64,000 nucleotides of DNA from a virus. The first letter of the stretch is position 1. Each line of letters begins with the position of its first letter. Shown in pieces: positions 2,934 to 22,044 of the stretch. Below the pieces are notes generated by a model, which searched no databases, was not told the origin of the DNA, and saw only the letters and a list, made by a program, of their open reading frames with translations. Location: the IMG/VR virus record IMGVR_UViG_3300046791_000499, positions 79,094 to 143,093 of that record. The stretch is one strand, 5' to 3'. Both the position numbers and the translations under genes were made by a program.

Positions 2934-3722
2934 CTACTCGCCCTTCGCTTTCAGAGTCTCAGGCGAATTCAGACCGATCGCGGTGTTCCATGCGGTCTGC
3001 GCTGTGGTGGCGCCCGTAAAGGCTGGTCCGGCGCCAGCGGCCACGAGAGCGTTGAGCATCGATGTCATCGCCGAACTCAACGCAGCCCAGTTGGTGAGCG
3101 ACAGCGCAGCCGGACCGCCTATGGTCACCGATTGCCCCGTGGGAACATCGATCGCAACCGAGCCCGAGGCGCTCAGCGTTATGGTGGCCGAGACCACCCC
3201 AGCCTTGGTGAGCGTCAGGACCCCGTCCGGTCCCACTCGAAGCGCATCCCCGACCGGGCCTTGGAGCACCCAGTCTTCGTCTTCGTCGGTGACCGAGGCC
3301 GGTGGTTGCGGCGTCGGCGGGGTAATTCGGAAGGGCAGCACCACCGCGTCGGAGAGATCATGGTGCCGCTGGTCGAGCGAGTGCGCCTGGCCGACGAGTT
3401 TGGTCTGCCTCCATCGCTCGGAGTTGCGATCCGAGCAGACGGCGAGGCACTCGTCGCCGGCCGTCATCGGCCAACGCATGGAGAATCCTCCACCGCCTGG
3501 GAAGGCGACTGGGGCGCTCGGAGCCTGTCCATCGCCTTTCTCTTCGCCGCCGCGCCGCGAGCCGATGCCAGCATCAAAGTCGACGTCCATCTCGCCGAGG
3601 GCCTGTCGCGCGATCGCTGCGATCTTGCCGAGCACGACGGTCCGCGCGTTGCGGATCTTCTCGTCGATGACGACGGCGATCGCCTCGATCAGCACGCCCG
3701 CGTCACCAGTCTTGGCCGTCAT
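2934..3722 (-). CDS. Baseplate spike / puncturing protein (gpV/Gp138-like)
   Basis: PVAFPGGGGF...GDECLAVCSDR...RHHDLSDAV Gp138-type N-terminus; beta-rich C-terminus. Confidence 0.8.
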   Translation of the reverse strand: MTAKTGDAGVLIEAIAVVIDEKIRNARTVVLGKIAAIARQALGEMDVDFDAGIGSRRGGEEKGDGQAPSAPVAFPGGGGFSMRWPMTAGDECLAVCSDRNSERWRQTKLVGQAHSLDQRHHDLSDAVVLPFRITPPTPQPPASVTDEDEDWVLQGPVGDALRVGPDGVLTLTKAGVVSATITLSASGSVAIDVPTGQSVTIGGPAALSLTNWAALSSAMTSMLNALVAAGAGPAFTGATTAQTAWNTAIGLNSPETLKAKGE

Positions 3723-6523
3723 TGGACCCCCGGGATCGTCCGCCCACCGCCGTGCGCAGCGAGCAGCCTCTTGCCCTGCAGCTCGAACATCGCAGCCACG
3801 AGCGCGGGCAAGTCTTCCAACTTGGCGAGCATCGCGTCCCGAGCCTGATTCGCGGCATCCTGCATCGCATCGTTCTCCTCGACCGAACCCGCACCGTGGA
3901 TGGTGATCGTGAGGTTCTCGATCAGTTTGATGATCGGGGCGATTGTGATCAAGAGCGTTTGCGGTGGCGGCCTGCCTTCGAGCACCGAGCCTGGACCGCG
4001 AAGCCCGAGCATGTCGAGGATGTTCTTGGACGCCCCGTCGAAGATCCGGCCGGCCTGGCGAAAGCGCTCCTCGAGTTCCTTGGCCCGCGTGCGACCGGCC
4101 TCGCGTGCGAGCGCGACGGCTTGATCTGGATCGGTGCCGCCAGCGATCAGGCGTTCGAGTTCACGCTGAGCGAACTCCTCGGCCTGTTTCTCGGCCGCCT
4201 TTTTCACGTCCTCCTCGAATTGGAAGAACGTGTCGCCCTTCCCCTTCTTTCCCTTCTTCCCCTTGGCTGCGCCCTTGACCTTGCCGATCTGGCCAACGGC
4301 TGCCTCGGCCGCGGCGTCGGCTGAACCAGTCGAGGCAAAGGTGGCGGTCGCGGTCTCGAACGCTTTCTGGCGCGTCGCTCGATTGCCCTCCAACACGGCC
4401 GCTCGCGCAGCTCGGCCAGCAGCGTCAGCATCCCCGCCGCGCTTTTTGGCCTCGGCTCGGGCTGTCTTCTCAGCTGAGTCCGCTCGGACCCGCTCCGCCT
4501 TCGCCACAGCGTCGTATACCTGGCGGCCCTCGGCGGTGAACAACTTGGAGGCTCCCTGCTCGGCCTGCTCGGCTGTGCCCTTCGAGAGCTGATTGAGCCG
4601 GAAATTGGCCTCATTCACGTCAGTCTCGGCGAGAAGACCCGCGCCCAGCCCTCCAACCGCACCCTGCACACGAGCCTTTGTCGCCTTCTCGCGTTCCTGT
4701 TTCTGCTTGTCGTACGCCTGGTTGCGCTCAAACCTCGCTCGCTCCATCGCGTCGATGTTGGCGTTGGTCTGCCGGATCGATGCTTCGAGCGCCTTGATCT
4801 CCCGCTCGCTCTCCGAGATCGAATCGTTCAAACCCGTGATGTCGGCTACGGCACTTGCGGCCATGTTGCCGAGCGCGAGACCAACAGCACCAGCCGCCAC
4901 GACCAGGCCAGCCGGCCCCATCATCGCCGTGGACATGCCGACGATCAGGAGCGTGGCGTTGATGAGAGCGTTCTCCATCCCGCCCGAGATCTCGATGAAG
5001 CTCTGGATCGCATCGATGATCATGCCGACCGCCTCGGCCCCACCAACCACCGCATCGTAGAAGGCGTCTAGCGCCCCGCCGACATCCTCTGGCGAGACCG
5101 ATCCGATGAACTCGCGGACCGCTTCGATGGCCGTGACGAGTGCATCCGACAGCACTTGCGCAAAGCCGCCGCTCTCGGAGAACCGGCCATTCAGATCTGT
5201 GATCAGGCCCTTGAAGGCATCGAGCGCGCCGGCCTGTGAGACCTGGTCGAAGAACTGCGCGATGCCGTCCTTCAAGTTCGAGATCATGCCGGCAGCGGTC
5301 TCGGTTTGGTTCGCCATCGAGCCGGCGAACTCGGTCTCGCCAAGGCCCTTCAAATAGGCGCTGATCTCGTCAGAGCTTTTGCCGACCGTGGTGGTCAGGC
5401 CCTTGAACGTGAAGGCGACCTTGTCTCCTTGGGTCGACGCCTTGATCCCGAATTCTTTGAGCCGCTCGAACTCGCCGGTACTGGCGTCGGCGACAGCCTC
5501 GACGAACTCGATGATCGGCTTGCCCTGCGCCGCGGCGATGTTACCGAACGCGGTGAGCGATTCGGTCGACGCATCCAGGCCGATGTTTTTGAGCCGGATA
5601 TAGGCGGTGGTGACCTCCTCAAGCTCGAATGGTGTGGTCTTGGCGAACTGCTGGATCAGACCGAACGCCGCGCTCGCACCCTCGGCCGAGCCCTCGACGG
5701 TCTTGAGTCGCGACCGGAGCGACTCGAAGTTGACTCCGGTCGAGAGCACGGCGGTGCCCAGGGCCGCGACCCCGATCGCACCAATGGAGGCGACGCGACC
5801 AACCGTTGCCGCGATCCCGCCGATGTCGCTCGCGGTGCTGCGCAGGATCTCTCGGCGACGATCCCGAGTCGATGCCTCATCGTTCAGATCGTCGAGCCGA
5901 CGACGCTTGCGGTCCAGGAACAGCCGCGCGTCATCGTCGATCATCTTGTGATGCGACCGCTGACGATCCGAGGCGACCTGTTCGGAGTGCTTCCGGTTGT
6001 CCTCCGTTGCCCGCTCTCGGCTGACCCGTAGCTTGTCGAGCGCTCGCCCTTCCGAGGCCGCGATCCTCTGCGACGCTTTCTCCTCTGCCGCCGCCGCTCG
6101 CTCGGATGCTCGGATGCGTGCGGCGATCTGCTTGTCCGACGCTGCGATAATCCGCTCGGACGCGCGCTCGTGGGCGGCGGCCTGCTTCGCGGCGAGAGAG
6201 TCCTCCTTGTCGGCGGCCTTCTCAGCGCTCGAGACCGCTTTCAAGAAGTCGGTCTCAGCCCGAACCGCAGCCTTCGCCCGGGTCGCCGCGGCTTTCTCGG
6301 CTGCCTTCGCAGCGCGCTCGGTCTCCTTGGCGAGCTGCCGTTCGGCGACCGCAGCCTTGGCCGCCGTGCGCTCTGACTCACCGAGTGAGCGGTCGAGATC
6401 GTCGGTTGCTCCGGCCGCTCGCTTCGATGTCCTGCTGAGCTTCTCCGCGTCGGCGTCGGCCTCCTTGAAGCCCTCGCCGTTGTACTTGGTGACGATGGAG
6501 ATGATGAAGCGGCGCAGTTCCAT
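3719..6523 (-). CDS. Tail tape measure protein
   Basis: 934 aa Ala-rich helical; FAKTTPFELEEV...GEFERLKEFGI tape-measure domain; hydrophobic segments. Confidence 0.9.
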   Translation of the reverse strand: MELRRFIISIVTKYNGEGFKEADADAEKLSRTSKRAAGATDDLDRSLGESERTAAKAAVAERQLAKETERAAKAAEKAAATRAKAAVRAETDFLKAVSSAEKAADKEDSLAAKQAAAHERASERIIAASDKQIAARIRASERAAAAEEKASQRIAASEGRALDKLRVSRERATEDNRKHSEQVASDRQRSHHKMIDDDARLFLDRKRRRLDDLNDEASTRDRRREILRSTASDIGGIAATVGRVASIGAIGVAALGTAVLSTGVNFESLRSRLKTVEGSAEGASAAFGLIQQFAKTTPFELEEVTTAYIRLKNIGLDASTESLTAFGNIAAAQGKPIIEFVEAVADASTGEFERLKEFGIKASTQGDKVAFTFKGLTTTVGKSSDEISAYLKGLGETEFAGSMANQTETAAGMISNLKDGIAQFFDQVSQAGALDAFKGLITDLNGRFSESGGFAQVLSDALVTAIEAVREFIGSVSPEDVGGALDAFYDAVVGGAEAVGMIIDAIQSFIEISGGMENALINATLLIVGMSTAMMGPAGLVVAAGAVGLALGNMAASAVADITGLNDSISESEREIKALEASIRQTNANIDAMERARFERNQAYDKQKQEREKATKARVQGAVGGLGAGLLAETDVNEANFRLNQLSKGTAEQAEQGASKLFTAEGRQVYDAVAKAERVRADSAEKTARAEAKKRGGDADAAGRAARAAVLEGNRATRQKAFETATATFASTGSADAAAEAAVGQIGKVKGAAKGKKGKKGKGDTFFQFEEDVKKAAEKQAEEFAQRELERLIAGGTDPDQAVALAREAGRTRAKELEERFRQAGRIFDGASKNILDMLGLRGPGSVLEGRPPPQTLLITIAPIIKLIENLTITIHGAGSVEENDAMQDAANQARDAMLAKLEDLPALVAAMFELQGKRLLAAHGGGRTIPGVQ

Positions 6524-8370: not shown

Positions 8371-9747
8371 TCAGACGAGCGCGAACTCGGCTTCCACTCG
8401 CAGCGCCGCGAGCTTCGGGGTGATGGTGGCGGAGGCGAGGATGCGCCCGGTCGTCTTGAAGTCGCCGATCGAAAGTTCGGACGGCGGAAGCGTGGACAGA
8501 TCGAGCGGCTCGTAGGTCACGGTGAAGTCGTCGCGGATGACACCAGCGGTGACCAGCGGGATCATGTCCTGGCTGATCTTGTCGCAGACGCTCTGCAGCC
8601 CGGCCTTGTCGAGATTGACGCCAGCGTTCGACTGCAAGATCAAGTCGACGGTCTGGCGGATCGTGTACCACCACCAATCCTCGGCGTGGACTTGGTAAAT
8701 GAAATTGCCGCTGGAGACGTAGCCGCCGAGCGTGCGCAGGTCATCGGCCGGGCTGTAGAACCGCTCGGTGTATGACGTGAAGCGCTGGCGCATCGTCTGC
8801 GTCTGGCTGAGCGACCGAGCAGCGGTGATCGTCGTTTCGTCGCTGCCCTCCGTGACCAGGAAGTGCCAGGTCCGCGAGCCCGGGAACGCCCCGCCGACAC
8901 GGCCAACCCACGCGGCCGCCATGTAGTCGGTCGCCGTCGGGTGGCTCAGCAGGGCGGCACGCTTGTACTCGCCGTTGAACCAGTCCACCGCGATGTTGGT
9001 GGTGTCGCTGCCGTCGTAGACCCCGACGGTCGCGGTCTCGCCGATCATGACGTTGCGGCGGTTCACGACGTCGGCTCCCGCCCATCGGCGGCCTTCGTCG
9101 AGTTCGACGTCGAGCGCACCTGGCATGAGAACGCCCCAGAAATTCGAGAGCGGGTAGGCGGCGTCGAGATCCTCGAACGCCCCGACGTTGGCCACCGTCT
9201 CCGTCACGGTCGGAGCCGTACCGCCTGGTGCTGCCGACGTCGGCGTGAAGCCAACCCCTGGCACGTCGGCCGTGAGACTCAGCGTGTCGGTGTCTACGGA
9301 AGCAGCGGTGATCAGCGCGCCGTAGATGCCACCGTTGAAGGCGGCGACCAACCCGTCCTTGATCTGCGTCGTGGTCGAGCCGCTTGCGGCGAACGTCGCG
9401 GCGAGCGTCCCGTTGATGCTGACGGTGTGGTTGCCGTCGGTCGTGGAGATGATGTCCACGGTCCAGACGTTGGCGACCGGGTTCTCGCGCTTGATCAGGA
9501 CGATCCGAGAAACGGCGGTGGCGGTCGGCTCCTGGCTGAATAGTTGGACCGCAGCGTTGAAGGCCGCGTCACCGGTGTCCCAGCCATCCTCCTCCATGAG
9601 CGCGGTCGACGAGTAGTCCGTCGTCTTCGCGGTGATGCCGGCAGGAACGGCGGGTGCCACAATCGCGAAGATCCGTGGGGTGTCCGGCGGTTCGGGTGGA
9701 ACCTGATTGAGCTGCGAATTGATTGCGATCCAGTCGATTGCGGGCAT
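8371..9747 (-). CDS. Tail sheath protein (DUF3383-like)
   Basis: 458 aa; AAVQLFSQEP, PGSRTWHF, SGNFI..., LVTAGVI motifs of DUF3383 sheaths. Confidence 0.8.
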   Translation of the reverse strand: MPAIDWIAINSQLNQVPPEPPDTPRIFAIVAPAVPAGITAKTTDYSSTALMEEDGWDTGDAAFNAAVQLFSQEPTATAVSRIVLIKRENPVANVWTVDIISTTDGNHTVSINGTLAATFAASGSTTTQIKDGLVAAFNGGIYGALITAASVDTDTLSLTADVPGVGFTPTSAAPGGTAPTVTETVANVGAFEDLDAAYPLSNFWGVLMPGALDVELDEGRRWAGADVVNRRNVMIGETATVGVYDGSDTTNIAVDWFNGEYKRAALLSHPTATDYMAAAWVGRVGGAFPGSRTWHFLVTEGSDETTITAARSLSQTQTMRQRFTSYTERFYSPADDLRTLGGYVSSGNFIYQVHAEDWWWYTIRQTVDLILQSNAGVNLDKAGLQSVCDKISQDMIPLVTAGVIRDDFTVTYEPLDLSTLPPSELSIGDFKTTGRILASATITPKLAALRVEAEFALV

Positions 9748-11039: not shown

Positions 11040-11588
11040 TCAGCCTGCTTTCTTGACGTCCTTGATCCGCGGGACCTTGGCGATCTTGCGGCTCAGCGCC
11101 TCGACCAGTTCCGGGTTGCGACGGTTCTTCGGGCCTGCGATGACCGGCTTCTTGTGCTCGATCTCCATCAACTGCTCGAGTGCGGCACGTCCAGAAGTCC
11201 GAGAGATCAGCGCGGTGAATTCGTCCGGGGTGAGCCCGGCGAGGTTGACCTCGACCACCTGCTTGGCCTCGATCAGCTTGGCGATCTCTTTGTGAGCCGA
11301 AGCCGCGGACCACGTCTTGGCGTCCACGAGATTCAGACCAGGCGTGAACATGCCGATGCTGCCATCGGGAAGGCCGAACGCGACCGGGCTGGGCTCGGCG
11401 TAGCGAGTCGGCGCGGGCGGACGCTTCGGTGCGTTCTTCGGTCGCACAGCGGCCGGGAGTTTCACGAGTTCTGGCTTGTAGTCCACGGCGACCAGCCCGG
11501 GGCTTGTCGGTTGTGGTGCACTCGGCACGGGGCCAGACGCACTGCGGCCGCGGGGGCTTGGCTTCTCGGTCTTGTCTTCTTCGCTCAT
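11040..11588 (-). CDS. Hypothetical head-associated protein, paralog of 12536-13156
   Basis: ATGA coupling; shared PG-x-N-x4-5-W motif. Confidence 0.55.
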   Translation of the reverse strand: MSEEDKTEKPSPRGRSASGPVPSAPQPTSPGLVAVDYKPELVKLPAAVRPKNAPKRPPAPTRYAEPSPVAFGLPDGSIGMFTPGLNLVDAKTWSAASAHKEIAKLIEAKQVVEVNLAGLTPDEFTALISRTSGRAALEQLMEIEHKKPVIAGPKNRRNPELVEALSRKIAKVPRIKDVKKAG

Positions 11589-12064
11589 ACGTCGTCTCCG
11601 TCTGTTCCGATCTCGAAATCGATGGCCTTGAGCATGTCGCCGCTGTCGACCAGCTTTTGATCGTGGCCCTTGCGATCGATGGTGCTCTGCGCGAGCGGGT
11701 CTCCGCCCACCTGTCGGGTCTCAATCACCGCCTTGGCCGACTTTTTCATGAGCCGGCCGAGCATGGTGAGAGCCTGGATGGGGGTGGCAACGCAGTCAGC
11801 GACCGCACCGACATCGTCCTTGGCCTCCTCACCGAGTAGCGGTGCACTCTGGTCGGCCGCGATCGAGAGCCAGGGACGTGGCTTGACGTACGGCTCCCCG
11901 TTGTCTCGCTGGGCCTTGGAGCCTAGTTCGTTGATCGCACCCTTGAATGCTTGCTCAGGCTCGAGCAAGCCGGCCGACACGCGCATGCGATCCAGCCCAG
12001 CGAGGTTTCGCTGAGTCTTCCGCCAACCGAGGTCGACGTCTTGGATCTTGATCGTGGTGCCCAT
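11585..12064 (-). CDS. Neck / tail completion protein (HK97 gp10-like)
   Basis: NELG...PRPWL and PLAQSTIDRKG...LVDSGDMLKAI motifs. Confidence 0.75.
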   Translation of the reverse strand: MGTTIKIQDVDLGWRKTQRNLAGLDRMRVSAGLLEPEQAFKGAINELGSKAQRDNGEPYVKPRPWLSIAADQSAPLLGEEAKDDVGAVADCVATPIQALTMLGRLMKKSAKAVIETRQVGGDPLAQSTIDRKGHDQKLVDSGDMLKAIDFEIGTDGDDV

Positions 12065-14381: not shown

Positions 14382-15686
14382 TCAGACGTTGGGCGTGACC
14401 GGGACCGCGATACGAGCGCGACCGATGTGGGTGGAGGGGGCGATGAACATTTCACCGCGGGTGGTTCGGGTGTGGGTGCTGACCTCGGGGTTCGTCTCGA
14501 CGAACGCGATGGTGCCGGGGCCCAGGTTGGTCACGGTCACGGCGCGGCCATCGGCGGGGCCGGTGAGCGTGATGGTCGAGGTGCCACCACCAGCAACGAG
14601 CCCCGTGAGCGTGGGCTTGAGTGCGAGGGCAGCTTTCAGGCCCGTGACGATCAGCGTGGCGGTCGTGCCGGCGCCGCTGGTGAAGCCAACGTGCTCGGTG
14701 ACGGTGACCCCCAGGTTGTTCACGACCGAGACCTGGAAGGCGTAGTCGGTTGCGTCGACCGCCGTTGGCGTTCCCGTCCACAGGTTCGCCGTGGCACCGA
14801 CGGCGGCACCAGCCGCATCCGTCACCATGCCGGCGAGGTAATCGCCCGCGTCGGTGTGTCGGACGTAGACGGCCTCGGGCCCGTTGCTCAGCGTGATCGC
14901 CTTCTCGCCGTAGGCCGAGATGTGCCCGTACTTGGCGTAGGGGATGTTCTGGCCGGACTTGTACTCGCGGTAGGCGAAGCCGGGCTCGACGGGCTGCGTG
15001 TCGGAGCCCCGGAAGATCGGACCGCGGAAGGTCGCGGCCGACATCGAAGACGTGATCTTGGTGAAGTAGGGGCGGCCCTCCTTGTCGTAGCCGGCGGTCC
15101 CCTTGCTCGTGTCGATCCCGTAGAAGAGACCAACCTTGATCGTGTCGGTGACCGGCGACGCGATGGAGGTCGCCGTGTAGCCATCGCCACCGACGGTGCT
15201 GGTGATCACGGCCGAGAACGTCGCGCCTGGGACCCGAGCGGTGAGCCGCAACTTGGCCGCGCTCGCGCCGACCGAGGCGACCACGTAGGAGGCGATGTTG
15301 CCACCCGTGTAGGCCCCCGCGATGGTCGTGATCGCAGCGTTGATCGCCTCGATCAATCCGAGCACGGTGTCCGCGGCGGTGTCCGCCGTCGCTACGAACG
15401 AGGTGCTCGCGGGCGCCATCGCATGCGCCGCGGCCGAGGTCCCCGATTGAGTCGTCAGCATCGTGACCGTGACGGTCCACGTTGCCGAAGACGCGAAGGT
15501 CCCCGTCAGTTCGTAGTCGGTGACCTGAACGACCTGTGGGTAGTGGGCAGTCCCGACATCGTTGATCGAGGTGTCGAAGAAACACCCCGGCTCGATGATG
15601 GTCTCATCCGGGTTGGTGACGCCGTCCGTCTTGAGGAACGGGATGTCGAGATTGTTGGTGAACGGGAACAGGGGTGGAAGTGACAT
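14382..15686 (-). CDS. Head decoration/cement protein with inserted domains
   Basis: Between protease and MCP; GHI-x-A...VYVRH pattern; Thr/Ala/Gly-rich. Confidence 0.65.
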   Translation of the reverse strand: MSLPPLFPFTNNLDIPFLKTDGVTNPDETIIEPGCFFDTSINDVGTAHYPQVVQVTDYELTGTFASSATWTVTVTMLTTQSGTSAAAHAMAPASTSFVATADTAADTVLGLIEAINAAITTIAGAYTGGNIASYVVASVGASAAKLRLTARVPGATFSAVITSTVGGDGYTATSIASPVTDTIKVGLFYGIDTSKGTAGYDKEGRPYFTKITSSMSAATFRGPIFRGSDTQPVEPGFAYREYKSGQNIPYAKYGHISAYGEKAITLSNGPEAVYVRHTDAGDYLAGMVTDAAGAAVGATANLWTGTPTAVDATDYAFQVSVVNNLGVTVTEHVGFTSGAGTTATLIVTGLKAALALKPTLTGLVAGGGTSTITLTGPADGRAVTVTNLGPGTIAFVETNPEVSTHTRTTRGEMFIAPSTHIGRARIAVPVTPNV

Positions 15687-15689
15687 GGA

Positions 15690-18600
15690 TCAGGCCGCTC
15701 CGTGGGGCTGGGTTGGGGGCGCGCCGACGGGCAACGCCGTGTACTGGTTGCGAACTTGCTGGGCCTTGGCCAGCGGGTCGTCGTCCTGCCGGGTGGCATC
15801 GGTCACGGCATTCGCGGCGCGCAGGCGCTCGACGGATGCAAGGGCTTCGGTGCCCTTGTGGTCACGCCGGTCGAGCATCTCGCGTGCATCGGCCAGTCGC
15901 TCTCGCACGGCGTAGGAACGGGCCTCGGGGGTCGGAGCCGCATCGATCCGCTTGATGATCGCCTCGGCCTTGTCGCCGTAGGCTTCTCGGATCGCCGCCA
16001 TCTCCCAATCCACGATCGAGAGCGGGAGAGGTTCGCCGGAGGCTGCATCCTTGCGGGGCTCGGGCGTGTACTCGTTGCCTCGGCAGCGAGCCACGAGAGC
16101 CATCGACTCGGCGATGTGGAGAGCTTGGGCGTTGACCATCCCGAGCGCGTCGGCATGCGAGACCATCTTGGACATCGCGTCGGAGCGCTCGGTCAGCGTG
16201 GTCTTGGCGGCGGCCAATGCCTGCTCGGTCTTGGCGAGGTCGTGCTCGGCCTTATCGGCGCGCTTGCCTGCGCGGTCGGTCCGACCCTCGAGCATGGCTA
16301 CGTACTCGGCGACGGCGAGCGGGACCTGGTACTCGGCCTCGCCGACCACCAACGTGGCGAGGTCGCCAGCAACAACGGGGACCTGGACCTCCTCGTTCGC
16401 AGCGACAACGGCTGGTGCGCCTGCATCCGTCGTCGGCATTGCCGGAGGCACAGGGGGAGCAGCCGCGGCCGGAGCCTTGGGCGCGTCGGGGAACGCCATG
16501 CCGAGCGCGTTGATCTGGTCGGGCGTGAGATCCTCCTCCGACTCCATGAACTTCGCCATGTCTTCGGGCTTGATGCCGATCGCGGTGGCGATGACGTCTT
16601 CGGTCAGGCCGAGCGCCATCGCGGCGGGGATGAGTTTCTTCTTGAGCATGACGACAGAGTCCTGTTGTTGGGTGGGAGGGGCAGGCCGCTTGGCGCTGGC
16701 AGAGTCGAACCGGGTCCAAGAAGGAGGGTCGAAGAACACCGGTTGCACTGGCGGTCTCGCCGAGAGCGCGAGAGCAATGAGTTCGTCGGCGCTGTGCACC
16801 CGGATGCCGGCCGCGTCGGCGCGACCGGTCAGCACCTTGGCCGTGATGGCTGCGCCGTGCGGTTCGCTGGCGAGGCTGTTCCAGGTGATGTTGTCGATCC
16901 ATTGATCGAAGGGCCGACCGTAGTCGTCGGTGCCTGGTCCGCGATGGACGCGGCAGCCGTAGGCGACGGAGACCTCGGGCGCCATCGGCTTCTGACCGTT
17001 GACCCCTTCGATCGCGTAACGCAGGGCGGCGTCCCATGCCTTGGCCCACCCGAAGGTGTGAAGTCCATCGTGGTACTCGTCGACCGTGAGCACGACCCCG
17101 CGCGCAGCTCCGAGAACCGTCGACGGGGTGAGCAGGTCGGAACTGTGCCGCAGTTCCCACGGCGAGCCGATGCCCGAGTCCATGGAGGCCCGGTCGAACA
17201 CGGACTTGCGCGGCCGGAACTCGCGAATGCCGTTGTAGACCTGGATGTTGTCGGCACGCGAGTACAGCACCGGGTAGGTGACCCAGCCGTAGGGATGGAT
17301 GATCGGCGTGCAGTCGGCCGCCATCTCGACGCGGTCGGCTCGGACGATGTCGAAGCTGTTGGTGCGGCTCTCGACGTGGATGGCCGGCGCGTTGCCGGTG
17401 GCCAGGATCCCCGCGAGAGCACCAGCCATCCCGAGCGCCGAAGCACCGGCAGCGGTTCCGCCGAACTTGATCGCAGCACCGGGGCGCACGTCGATGGTGA
17501 TGGCGCCCGCTGCATCCATGGAGATGCGGGTCTCAGCGCCGGGCTTGCCGATCAGCACGCTGCCGTCAGCGCCCACACCGAACAACGCCTGCTGCCCTGG
17601 CGCGGCATCCTTCGCTGCCTTGGCAGCTTCGATCTGGCGGAGTCGCTCTCGAGCCTCGGCCTCGGTGTCGTAGGGGCCGAGTTCTTTGTACCCGTCCGCT
17701 GAGAGCACGACCCACTTGCCGTTCCGTTCCTCGATCCGGTCGTAGTGCTCAGCACCGTCGAAGACGTACCGCTCGCCTGCGCGCCAGATCTCGATGGAAT
17801 CGACCGGCCAGGATCCAGTCGGGACGGTGCCGGTCCAGTCGGTTCCGGGCTCGATGTAGCCGAGGGTGGCGTGGGGCTTCCATGACTCGCCGAGTCGAGA
17901 GACGTCGAGGCCAGCGGAGGCGAGCGCTTGGGCGAGCGCGCCTTGGGCAGCCACGCAGACGGGGGCAACGTCGACAGCGCAGTGAGCCACGCGCATGTCG
18001 TTGTCGAAGTAGGAGAGCGGTCCGAGGTTGACCTGCGAGCCCAGCATGGTCGGTGCCACAGCCCGGACGGCCTCCATGGCTGCGGCCAGTTGTTCCTCGC
18101 TGGTGTGCTTGACGTAGACGCAGGTGACGTGGGGAGCACCGACCTCGGCGTCCTCGGGGAATTGCGCAGCGATGGCGGCTGGGATCGGCAGAACGACGCA
18201 GAGCGAGTCGGCCGCGAAGTCTTGGCGTGCCATCGGCAGCACTTCGACCCGCATGACATCGACGGGGCCGAATACTACGACCTCGCGCTCGGTGGCGATC
18301 GCATTGCGCAGCGGCTCGTTCCAGATCGGGTGGACCTGGTCAGCGATGGCCGAGATCTTGGCGATGGCGTCAGCATCGAGCAGGAGCGCGTCCGGGGACA
18401 CGCTGCCGTGCATGATTGCACCGACCTTGGCGTTGTTGATGTCGCCGGTCGGGATGTAGTCCCCGCTCGAGAACTTGGTCGCCTGCTCGAGCGACGTGGT
18501 CCAGGACTTGTCGCGAGTCGCGTCTGACTCGCCAACGAGCTTCCCGGCGATGCTCGGCGAGATGTTCGACAGGCCGCGGTAGATGCGGTCGGTCTCGGGC

Positions 18601-19082
18601 GCGCGCAGGTATGGGTACTTATCGCGCAGCCCGAGCAGCACTTGGATGCGCGGCTGCGAGAGCTTTTGCCCGTGCGAGTAGTGCTCGACCAGCCACCCGT
18701 GGATCGTCGCTTCATCTGGCTCGCCGTCCTGCCGAGCGTTGAAGTCGTCGAGCAGCCCCTTGGCTGCCTTGGTCGCTCGCTCGCGAACATCGGCCGGCAC
18801 GTCGAGCGGGGTGCCCTGACCAAGCCGGCTCAGCGCTGCACGCAGGGCAGCCGCGTTGATGACCATCTCGCCGTCGACGATGTCGCCAACCGGCATGTGG
18901 AGATCGCCCTTGAGCTTGGTCGACGGGTCCGCGATCAGGTAGGCGGCGGAGACCTTGTCGAAGTCGAGTTCGCCTGCAGCGTTGGATGCCCACGCGAACA
19001 GGCGCTTTTCGGCCGCGCCGCTGTCCCAAGGCTGGTCGATGATCTGGGCCTTGGTGTTGAGCGTGATGCGGAAGTCAGCCAC
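15690..19082 (-). CDS. Multidomain prohead protease/scaffold polyprotein (N-domain + ART + 2H phosphoesterase + small domain + spike-like segment + DUF2213 + scaffold)
   Basis: GGAGGT RBS before GTG 19082; YRG/SWTTS/EREV; PHVT/PHAT; SRADNIQVY..REFRP..VF..EVSVAY; acidic helical C-terminus. Confidence 0.8.
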   Translation of the reverse strand: MADFRITLNTKAQIIDQPWDSGAAEKRLFAWASNAAGELDFDKVSAAYLIADPSTKLKGDLHMPVGDIVDGEMVINAAALRAALSRLGQGTPLDVPADVRERATKAAKGLLDDFNARQDGEPDEATIHGWLVEHYSHGQKLSQPRIQVLLGLRDKYPYLRAPETDRIYRGLSNISPSIAGKLVGESDATRDKSWTTSLEQATKFSSGDYIPTGDINNAKVGAIMHGSVSPDALLLDADAIAKISAIADQVHPIWNEPLRNAIATEREVVVFGPVDVMRVEVLPMARQDFAADSLCVVLPIPAAIAAQFPEDAEVGAPHVTCVYVKHTSEEQLAAAMEAVRAVAPTMLGSQVNLGPLSYFDNDMRVAHCAVDVAPVCVAAQGALAQALASAGLDVSRLGESWKPHATLGYIEPGTDWTGTVPTGSWPVDSIEIWRAGERYVFDGAEHYDRIEERNGKWVVLSADGYKELGPYDTEAEARERLRQIEAAKAAKDAAPGQQALFGVGADGSVLIGKPGAETRISMDAAGAITIDVRPGAAIKFGGTAAGASALGMAGALAGILATGNAPAIHVESRTNSFDIVRADRVEMAADCTPIIHPYGWVTYPVLYSRADNIQVYNGIREFRPRKSVFDRASMDSGIGSPWELRHSSDLLTPSTVLGAARGVVLTVDEYHDGLHTFGWAKAWDAALRYAIEGVNGQKPMAPEVSVAYGCRVHRGPGTDDYGRPFDQWIDNITWNSLASEPHGAAITAKVLTGRADAAGIRVHSADELIALALSARPPVQPVFFDPPSWTRFDSASAKRPAPPTQQQDSVVMLKKKLIPAAMALGLTEDVIATAIGIKPEDMAKFMESEEDLTPDQINALGMAFPDAPKAPAAAAPPVPPAMPTTDAGAPAVVAANEEVQVPVVAGDLATLVVGEAEYQVPLAVAEYVAMLEGRTDRAGKRADKAEHDLAKTEQALAAAKTTLTERSDAMSKMVSHADALGMVNAQALHIAESMALVARCRGNEYTPEPRKDAASGEPLPLSIVDWEMAAIREAYGDKAEAIIKRIDAAPTPEARSYAVRERLADAREMLDRRDHKGTEALASVERLRAANAVTDATRQDDDPLAKAQQVRNQYTALPVGAPPTQPHGAA

Positions 19083-19328
19083 GGCGGACCTCCGTCGCGG
19101 TGTTGCACTTCGGGCATGCGTCGGCAGGGAAGTCGGGGTGCAGTTCGCAGCGGAGTGCGGGCGCAACAACACCGACGCGACCGCCACTATCTCGGCGCGT
19201 CTGCCATTCGCCTGCGTTTTGCTGGGGACCCGAATCGACCACTTAGGCAGGCAGCCTAGGGGCTACATTTACAGGACGGCAAACATGGCCCGTTGCGCGC
19301 CGCGGTACGGCCGAGATAGAATCCGCGA

Positions 19329-19685: not shown

Positions 19686-21080
19686 TCATGGGTTCCGGCT
19701 CCGGGTGTGTTCGAGCGCAAACGCCTGGATGTTGGCCACGATGCGCTGGCGAAAGTCGCCGTCGCGCTCGTCTGGGTTTCGCGTCAGCCCGCGAACCTGC
19801 CCGATGCCGTCGAGCGCCTGGCCCGTGGCGCGAGGCACCACGATCACCTGGGTTCGACGTGTTCGGAATAGCCGAGCCTCGGCATGCTCGATCTCGCCGC
19901 GACGCCAGCGTGGAAGTTGCAGCCATTCGCGCCTCTCGTGCTCGCGATGAGGCCGTGCCGAGATGCGCTCATCCAGGCTCGGGCGGTCGGCCGCTGGCAT
20001 CGTGACCAGGAACTCGGGTCCGCAGTACAGGCTATCGGCGTACTCGCGGTGCTTGCCTCGGTCGACCACCCGGGTCGCAGGGCCTCCGAAGCGGGCATGC
20101 TCGCCGGGGATTGGGATCGTGTCGACCAGGTCGGAGAGATCCCGATCTTCGTCGTACAGCCTCCGGGTCCACTCGCTGCGGCTGCGATCGTCTCGGGCAC
20201 TCGGCGTTCGTTGCGAGTCGGCCACAACAACCGCCACGGCCGTCGACCATGTGATCTTCGGCAGCACTCCGGTGAGATTGTGCCCCGTACCTCGGCACGT
20301 CGGGCACCGACCGCGGATCGATTCACCCACGGCAGCCTCGCGCGGCTGGCCGTCCTCACCGATGATCGTCAGCCCAGGAACCGCAACCACCGAGATGCGG
20401 GTGTGCGGTGTGATCGCCAGGCCCGGTCCCGTCTCGCCGATCCCATCGCATCCGAGGCAGTCGCTGGGCTGGCCCTCGAGCGCCTCGAGCAGCAGTCGGC
20501 CGAGATGGGCGATGGCCTTGCCATTGGCGACGCCGGGCGGGATGCCGTGCTTGCGGGTGAATCCGCGACCCTTGCAGGCGGTGCAACGCCGACTCCAGAC
20601 CTCGGTCGGCTCCTCACCATCATCCGTCGGAAAAGTGCCGCCGGTTTGCTCCCAGCCTTCGAGGGCGAACGTAGCGTGGGCAATGGCACGAGTGACCCCG
20701 TGCTGCTTCTCTTCGTACCCATTCCCCTTGCACTCCTTGCATCGCTCCCACCCGTACTCGCTAGCGAGCGGACCTGGCCAACCACCTGCCTGTGGGAAGC
20801 GAAGGGGATGCGGAGTCTCGAACGCGGCCCCGTCTTCGATGTACGACTGCGCCGCATCGAGGCATCCGCTCCGAGTCAGGTGCACCGTCGTGGCGACCAC
20901 GGATCCGTACGTCGCGCCGATCTTCCACTTGGTCTGCCATCGCCTGCCAGCATCTCCGATCGTGACGTGCTCGAGCGTGATCGTAGCGCATGCCTCCGCG
21001 ATCAGCCGAGCGACCTGCATCCGGTTGCGGCGCAGCCTCATGGTCTTGGATTGCTTCGCCTGTCCCACTACAACCAGCAC
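19686..21080 (-). CDS. CxxCxGxG (DnaJ-type) zinc-finger repeat protein
   Basis: CKECKGNG, CTACKGRG, CLGCDGIG, CPTCRGTG; start may be ATG 21041. Confidence 0.7.
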   Translation of the reverse strand: MLVVVGQAKQSKTMRLRRNRMQVARLIAEACATITLEHVTIGDAGRRWQTKWKIGATYGSVVATTVHLTRSGCLDAAQSYIEDGAAFETPHPLRFPQAGGWPGPLASEYGWERCKECKGNGYEEKQHGVTRAIAHATFALEGWEQTGGTFPTDDGEEPTEVWSRRCTACKGRGFTRKHGIPPGVANGKAIAHLGRLLLEALEGQPSDCLGCDGIGETGPGLAITPHTRISVVAVPGLTIIGEDGQPREAAVGESIRGRCPTCRGTGHNLTGVLPKITWSTAVAVVVADSQRTPSARDDRSRSEWTRRLYDEDRDLSDLVDTIPIPGEHARFGGPATRVVDRGKHREYADSLYCGPEFLVTMPAADRPSLDERISARPHREHERREWLQLPRWRRGEIEHAEARLFRTRRTQVIVVPRATGQALDGIGQVRGLTRNPDERDGDFRQRIVANIQAFALEHTRSRNP

Positions 21081-21286
21081 TCCACGATCACGGGATCGTC
21101 AGTGGTGGAACGCGAAACACAGATGTGGCCGCTCGGGACTGCCAGTCGGGCCGCCTGGAGATCATCGACCACGGCGAGCGGTACTTGGTCGGGCTTCTCG
21201 CCAACCCAGCGCCTCACCACGAACTTGTCGGGGTAGTCCTTGGGGTTGTCGTAGATCGCGTAGAATTCACCAACCGTCACCGTCAT
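21068..21286 (-). CDS. Small hypothetical phage protein
   Basis: IYDNPKDYPDKFVVRRW...DDPVIVECWL; ATGA coupling. Confidence 0.65.
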   Translation of the reverse strand: MTVTVGEFYAIYDNPKDYPDKFVVRRWVGEKPDQVPLAVVDDLQAARLAVPSGHICVSRSTTDDPVIVECWL

Positions 21287-22044
21287 GGGCTTGTGCTCTC
21301 CTCGGCCTTGGCCGGCGTAATCATGTCGAGCGTCGGGCTGACCTCGTGGAAGCCGTGGAACGAGACGATGTCGAGCACCACGTACTCGGACGACCGCTCG
21401 CCCAAGCGGTTCCACGTCGCACACCGCTCATCCCATTCGAGATCGCTGATCTGGTCGGGTTTGTCCGTATTGTTCCAATAGCCGTACTCCTCGAGCCCGG
21501 TGTACTCACGGAGGAAGTCGAGCACGCCGCCCATGAGGCTGGCGCCGTCGCAGTAGGGGATCAGGTAGTACCGGCCACCGAGTTCGCGGATGGCGACCGA
21601 GACGCCGAGGTTCCACTTGCTGCGCTGGAAACTGCTCAACTGCGCGCCGTACTTCTGCGTGACCCAGGGGTCGACATCGAGCACGTCCAGCGGGCGAGCA
21701 TCGTAGCCATCGCCGTGGAGGTCAGCGAGGATCTGCGCGTTGACGACCGACACCCGCGAGACCGGCTTGACCCCGATGCGCTTCTCAGCGGACCGCATGT
21801 ACATGCTCACCGATACGACCCGATCGCTCGTGTCCTTGGTCTCCTCACGCCAGACCTCGAAGTCAGCATTTGCTCGCATGAACCATGTGGACAGCGCCTC
21901 TGCTCGCCCTTCGATGATGTCGCGGTAGACCTCGGCTAGCCGAGCACGAGCAGCGGTTTGGCCCTCGCGCTTGATCGTGAACAGGATCGGCCAGAGCGGG
22001 AAGCCCTCGCGGACGCGGTACGCCTCGTAGATTTTGGTGCTCAT
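21283..22044 (-). CDS. Hypothetical phage protein
   Basis: MSTKIY...YGYWNNTDKPD; ATGA coupling. Confidence 0.65.
   Translation of the reverse strand: MSTKIYEAYRVREGFPLWPILFTIKREGQTAARARLAEVYRDIIEGRAEALSTWFMRANADFEVWREETKDTSDRVVSVSMYMRSAEKRIGVKPVSRVSVVNAQILADLHGDGYDARPLDVLDVDPWVTQKYGAQLSSFQRSKWNLGVSVAIRELGGRYYLIPYCDGASLMGGVLDFLREYTGLEEYGYWNNTDKPDQISDLEWDERCATWNRLGERSSEYVVLDIVSFHGFHEVSPTLDMITPAKAEESTSP

Follow-up and report, generated by a model that had tools for sequence, protein, structure and literature searches.

The window analyzed here covers the final 64,000 nucleotides (positions 79,094 to 143,093) of IMGVR_UViG_3300046791_000499, a complete virus record of 143,093 bp that carries direct terminal repeats; the GC content of the window is ~66%. 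On the minus strand, within a myovirus-type structural module, one gene (15690–19082) encodes a 1130-aa polyprotein in which an N-terminal module, an R-S-ExE ADP-ribosyltransferase (ART) domain, a 2H phosphoesterase, a mini-domain and a linker precede a putative head maturation protease and a scaffold region. We favor, with moderate confidence, the reading that this gene encodes a virion-cargo polyprotein, which would be processed and packaged so as to deliver the ART and 2H enzymes.

The frame is uninterrupted from 19187 to 15690. A Shine-Dalgarno GGAGG (19089–19093, minus strand) precedes the GTG start at 19082 by 6 nt, the stop codon lies at 15690–15692, and GC at third codon positions is 0.83, uniform along the frame and normal for coding sequence here. 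An identical 1130-aa protein is on record from another contig (P0002), and ~18 independently assembled relatives of 714–1259 aa, found in NCBI, JGI, ENA and Logan assemblies, are fusions of the same kind. Because these relatives come from separate assemblies, we exclude, to near certainty, that an assembly or frame artefact merged separate genes into one long open reading frame (ORF), and the single ORF of ~1130 aa described in an earlier note on this DNA stands. IMG/VR yielded only one relative, the GTDB representative genomes yielded none, and tblastn with the capsid protein and with the ART domain found no match in 50,697 GenBank phage records. The polyprotein and its neighbor genes have no match in NCBIfam; among PDB sequences the whole polyprotein has none, and its protease-scaffold half only chance matches.

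Enzyme domains of the polyprotein

The ART domain (aa 120–288; 18219–18725, minus strand) carries R169, S193, E265 and E267, and ends in R-Q-D (aa 286–288). Its motifs lie where the earlier note, which had called an R-S-ExE ART and a 2H enzyme in this ORF, placed them (IYRG at aa 167, KSWTTS at aa 192, EREV at aa 265), and the structural model (pLDDT 93.4) has the ART fold. In the model, (Y/F)RG lies on strand 48–56, KSW(T/S)xS on strand 75–77 followed by helix 80–87, and ExE at 147–149 leading into strand 149–152; this is the fold and motif placement of the R-S-E clade, with the Arg on strand 1, a Ser-x-Ser type motif on strand 2 plus helix, and (Q/E)xE where strand 5 starts. The best Foldseek matches are cholera toxin, LT, pertussis toxin, PltA and Rhs ART toxins, with weak E-values (best 0.026), and the structural neighbors modify proteins (the TreX, pertussis and PltA toxins) or DNA (Scabin). 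Moreover, R, S and ExE are retained in essentially all of ~39 homologs, which are 23–69% identical; one has QxE. Neither Pfam nor PHROG matches the domain, and the sequence comparison with the Alt/ModB family that had been proposed came back empty: similarity was detectable neither to T4 Alt, ModA or ModB nor to any Pfam ART model.

The ART family is rare, with 33 clusters among 1.84 billion representatives. When its members are multidomain proteins, their partners are only DUF2213, portals (PF06381 and PF04860, with the ART at the portal C-terminus) and ClpP-type or XkdF-type proteases; three unrelated head-protease families are thus represented, and some of the portal fusions additionally carry a 2H domain. 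Solo forms exist too, and the gene surroundings of two of them held nothing informative. We also asked whether the module could be a MuF head-morphogenesis domain that has diverged, and decided against it. In two relatives (P0011 and P0013) MuF forms a domain apart, which has a signature of its own, PF04233 has no match anywhere in the genome of the window, and the R-S-ExE set is conserved.

The domain that follows (aa 289–447; 17742–18218, minus strand) is a LigT/ThpR-like 2H phosphoesterase. It matches PF13563 above the cut-off, its model (pLDDT 93) has the 2H fold with both HxT motifs on central strands, and the motifs, with H318 and H404, are again found at the positions given before (PHVT at aa 317, PHAT at aa 403). 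Both are retained in 13 of 14 aligned 2H domains. The second motif of one relative, P0009 (L005, 8010–8645), reads PRAT instead of PHAT, and this copy may be inactive; that of P0013 reads PHGT. The earlier description of the domain as 'Acb1-like' survives only at the level of the 2H superfamily. None of 15 members of the 2H family matches the Acb1 hidden Markov model (HMM) PF23474 at E ≤ 1, while a genuine pseudo-T-even Acb1, the positive control, scores E 3.8e-49; Acb1 structures are not among the top 50 Foldseek matches of the 2H model, and a second look in VIA places Acb1 at rank 41 or below. Judged by its sequence, the domain belongs with LigT-like enzymes and not with Acb1. The viral 2H models closest to it lie in large actinophage proteins annotated as 'RNA ligase' or 'capsid morphogenesis protein'.

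A mini-domain of ~45 aa (aa 448–495; 17598–17741, minus strand), made of three strands and a helix, bears out the ~40-aa domain expected after the 2H enzyme. Its pattern, KW.V....G..LG.Y.T..EA..RL, is common to the C-terminus of the 207-aa Acb1 forms of pseudo-T-even phages. The 42% identity to these long forms, over 95 aa, falls mostly within the mini-domain, and tblastn matches to 'Acb1/RNA ligase' genes of T4-like phages are owed mainly to it and not to the 2H domain. A Skatevirus 'prohead core protein serine protease' begins with it, and in Ackermannviridae it forms a 65-aa ORF of its own, located among tRNA genes (occurrences outside the window: L001, 1501–1767; L010, 3501–3590; L011, 2429–2626). 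At the other end of the cargo, the N-terminal module (aa 1–119; 18726–19082, minus strand), which ends in R-Q-D (aa 117–119) and is mobile among relatives, belongs to no known family, and the only proteins it resembles are unnamed ones of ~120–130 aa from phages and actinobacteria.

The carrier, its linkers and its neighbors

The cargo is joined to the carrier by a Gly/Ala-rich linker (aa 496–564; 17391–17597, minus strand) that varies among relatives without conservation, and nothing in it supports the 'spike-like segment' that the earlier note saw here. The DUF2213 domain it proposed next was upheld. This region (aa 565–800; 16683–17390, minus strand), a putative head maturation protease of the Pa193 gp24 type with invariant H646, H675, S705 and S736, scores 21.1 bits against the Pfam family (PF09979, renamed Pa193_gp24 in newer releases), just below the 22-bit cut-off; however, it matches PHROG 530 'head maturation protease' at E 1.9e-9, relatives 49–75% identical across the region clear the Pfam cut-off (up to E 4e-29), and its nearest Atlas clusters are DUF2213 and YonD_N.

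From Met812 to the C-terminus (aa 812–1130; 15693–16649, minus strand) extends the scaffold region, a call that also holds, with seven R-x-D sites and weak helix-turn-helix-like matches at its start. The codon that opens it is Met in 12 of 13 relatives and GTG in the remaining one. A Shine-Dalgarno-like AGGA (16660–16663, minus strand) stands 10 nt before the internal ATG, and AGGA, GAGGA or AAGGA is found 7–10 nt upstream of the internal ATG/GTG at all six loci for which DNA is available (the window and the L005–L009 equivalents). This pattern suggests that the internal start at Met812 marks a nested scaffold gene.

The R-x-D motif recurs at every module boundary of the polyprotein. In all 13 relatives it is 2–3 fold more frequent than in composition-matched shuffled sequence, and its placement is regular. 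It precedes the first ART helix by 4–8 residues in 11 of 11 DUF2213 fusions; ahead of the first 2H strand the R is invariant and the D is present in at least 90% of rows; and ahead of the protease domain both R581 and D583 are invariant. Before the ART of other proteins it is nearly absent (none of three XkdF fusions, one of seven portal fusions and none of nine solo forms), and we therefore regard R-x-D as a feature of the carrier lineage and not as part of the ART fold. Within the ART and 2H folds it is ~6-fold rarer than outside them (0.0031 against 0.0193 per residue), a difference whose significance is overstated because the sequences are related; in the window protein the cargo folds have none.

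The same motif marks the major capsid protein (PF09950; 13162–14364, minus strand), in which all three copies lie within the first 97 aa, at aa 10, 30 and 95, before the region that matches PF09950. This arrangement suggests a removable N-terminal propeptide of ~97 aa; the capsid protein of phage Pa193 is visible only from residue 66. Taken together, the enrichment, the boundary position, the depletion within cargo and the N-terminal placement in the capsid protein suggest that R-x-D is a maturation cleavage signal.

Comparison of the relatives, a survey of cargo variation that the earlier note had called for, shows that the modules are shuffled. The ART precedes the 2H domain in five relatives and follows it in four, and the N-terminal module takes one of three places, at the front of the chain, behind the protease or within the scaffold, so that independent folded cassettes are the simplest reading. 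Furthermore, DUF3140 and MuF domains take the place of other cassettes in the carrier family (relatives P0005, P0006, P0011, P0013 and P0014); the carrier therefore accepts diverse modules. The polyprotein idea thus stands, and it is strengthened by this shuffling, by the specificity of R-x-D to DUF2213 fusions and by the fusion of the ART only to portals and head proteases.

The order of genes around the polyprotein is conserved: in the window and five related loci, the carrier comes first, a gene in the decoration position second and the PF09950 capsid protein third. The middle gene (434 aa; 14382–15686, minus strand) contains no R-x-D and matches no family, and both its position and its sequence are kept, with 40% identity to its counterpart at locus L007 (9238–10521). 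Beyond the capsid gene, also on the minus strand, are genes for a neck protein (11585–12064), the sheath (8371–9747) and the tape measure protein (3719–6523). The portal (PF06381; 32098–34401, plus strand) lies 13 kb from the head genes. Its frame of ~767–769 aa extends far beyond the HMM match, which covers ~400 residues. The plus-strand ORF at 19963–21939 was rejected as a portal. Just upstream of the polyprotein, a 464-aa ORF (19686–21080, minus strand) has a weak match to a DnaJ-type CXXCXGXG zinc finger and to no other family.

Proposed delivery and its alternatives

We propose the following course of events. The C-terminal scaffold region would draw the whole chain into the assembling procapsid, as in other protease-scaffold fusions, and the putative DUF2213 protease would cut the exposed R-x-D linkers. 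Three folded cargo pieces would be released, namely the N-terminal module, a presumably active ART, and the 2H domain with the mini-domain (~13, 19 and 30 kDa), whereas the R-x-D-rich scaffold would end up as small fragments. The released proteins would probably remain in the head and reach the next cell together with the DNA. In that cell the ART would modify some host macromolecule, and the 2H enzyme would hydrolyze a nucleotide whose phosphodiester is cyclic or of the 2'-5'/3'-5' kind, be it a second messenger of immunity or an RNA end with a 2',3'-cyclic phosphate. A scaffold-only product initiated at Met812 would probably supply the bulk of the scaffold, which would make the full-length cargo carrier a minor species.

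Several considerations weigh against this proposal. Intact scaffold proteins exit procapsids in some phages, so the retention of cargo is not guaranteed. The protease activity of DUF2213 is putative, its label being taken from the PHROG annotation; no solved protease matched the region by sequence, and hhalign, run with thin profiles, found nothing in common with XkdF-type protease domains (probability 1.5%). It may be that R-x-D is a linker habit of this lineage and does not mark a site of cleavage. The AGGA upstream of Met812 overlaps a conserved K/E/Q-D codon pair, and constraint on the protein could explain it; because of this overlap we put the nested scaffold gene forward tentatively. 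LigT-like enzymes classically act on RNA 2',3'-cyclic ends and not on immune signals. Finally, the phage and its close relatives are known as sequences, and we found no cultured relative.

One alternative concerns the substrate of the 2H enzyme. The cargo may be delivered and yet include an RNA-end or NAD-metabolite phosphodiesterase instead of an Acb1-style enzyme, which would heal 2',3'-cyclic ends left by host anticodon or HEPN nucleases, or would hydrolyze ADP-ribose 1'',2''-cyclic phosphate. The nearest relatives of the window 2H domain, which process 2',3'-cyclic RNA ends or Appr>p, point in this direction. On the other side, unrelated viral 2H enzymes degrade 2'-5' oligoadenylate and cGAMP, and the structural neighbors of the window domain include both kinds. 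We consider the RNA-end or metabolite version a possibility to be taken seriously, if an improbable one, and as to the role of the 2H domain we place immune-nucleotide degradation somewhat ahead.

Alternatively, the polyprotein might be processed while its enzymes stay behind and act late in infection, either in the cell that makes the particles or within the procapsid, for instance on packaged DNA, host RNA or NAD-derived molecules. We think this unlikely. That the ART is joined to portals and to three unrelated head-protease families is difficult to account for unless selection acts on a location inside the capsid; the scarcity of R-x-D within the cargo folds suggests that the cargo is meant to outlast maturation; and T4 Alt provides a precedent for an injected ART. 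Much less probable still is that the ART-like and 2H-like domains have no catalytic activity and serve structure or assembly, as modules comparable to MuF. MuF-type head proteins do occupy the same place in P0011 and P0013, and P0009 has PRAT where the second HxT would be, but the MuF signature belongs to a different domain, and the catalytic residues are kept across the diverse ART homologs and in all but one of the aligned 2H domains.

Beyond the delivery of cargo by this one polyprotein, a broader generalization can be offered, although we hold it only as speculation: the DUF2213 protease-scaffold may be a general cassette platform, on which any folded module flanked by R-x-D would be loaded, freed and injected, and which here would carry a hitherto unclassified, virion-dedicated ART family together with a LigT-type phosphodiesterase that disarms nucleotide immunity before phage gene expression. 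If cleavage and packaging are true, the polyprotein would be a clear natural case of enzymes loaded into a phage head via the scaffold and protease, with R-x-D linkers as a readable address label and interchangeable cargo cassettes. This would bear on how phages deliver counter-defence ahead of transcription and on the engineering of capsids to carry proteins, and LigT-type 2H enzymes, beyond Acb1, would become candidates for virion-delivered nucleotide hydrolases. The surprise is limited, since the general idea had already been predicted computationally, and so is immediate testability, since the phage is uncultured.

Comparison with known systems

T4 Alt, a product of late infection, goes into the prohead, where the head protease trims it, and is later injected along with the DNA. 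The window ART resembles it in the R-S-E type of its active site and in the proposed route of packaging and injection. Alt differs in being a separate protein with a short N-terminal targeting signal and not a module of a protease-scaffold chain, and the two share no detectable sequence similarity. With T4 Acb1 (gp57B, anti-CBASS) the 2H domain has in common the 2H fold and two HxT/S motifs, and the long pseudo-T-even forms also share the C-terminal mini-domain. The lambda C/Nu3 and Mu I/Z pairs are nested protease/scaffold genes. They resemble the window gene in that protease and scaffold are encoded in one frame, with a possible internal start for a separate scaffold; they carry no enzyme cargo, and internal initiation in the window is predicted from the conserved start and its upstream element.

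The DUF2213 family (PF09979) also includes gp24 of Pa193, one of the PB1-like myoviruses. LC-MS found this protein of 478 aa in virions, and one of its helix-turn-helix segments (aa 286–326) plugs the capsid five-fold vertices from inside; the authors describe it as a putative scaffold (PMC11456595). Both proteins have DUF2213 followed by a helical scaffold, and both lie in the same gene order, in which the 434-aa gene of the window fills the slot of the Pa193 decoration protein and is twice as long. Unlike the window protein, which has ~565 extra N-terminal residues forming three or four modules, gp24 has no cargo, and the similarity between the two is remote, at the 21.1-bit level given above.

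The phage 'polyvalent proteins' likewise combine in one chain several effector domains that are unrelated to each other, together with a peptidase predicted to process it, and in a virion-gene context, and the window protein fits this description. Their 2H domains are fused to MuF or portal and were proposed to degrade host-defence nucleotides, and assemblin-like peptidases lie at their C-termini (Iyer et al., 2017; PMC5512222). ART and 2H fusions to head proteins, head peptidases included, were described together with a prediction of packaging and injection (Iyer et al., 2017, 2022; PMC5512222, PMC9503650), and because of these accounts the head-packaged effector is an established prediction. 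The window protein differs in its carrier, a DUF2213 protease with scaffold in place of MuF, portal or an assemblin-like C-terminal peptidase; in its ART, which is of the R-S-E clade, where the 2017 account has H-Y-D ARTs in polyvalent proteins (PMC5512222); and in the explicit R-x-D linkers and cassette shuffling that are visible here. What is new is therefore the DUF2213-scaffold carrier, an R-S-E ART family that, when fused, is found only with head proteins and that has no match among cultured phages, the reassignment of the 2H domain from Acb1 to LigT-like, a conserved internal start that hints at a scaffold gene nested in the frame, an R-x-D code with its carrier-specific control, and the shuffling of cassettes.

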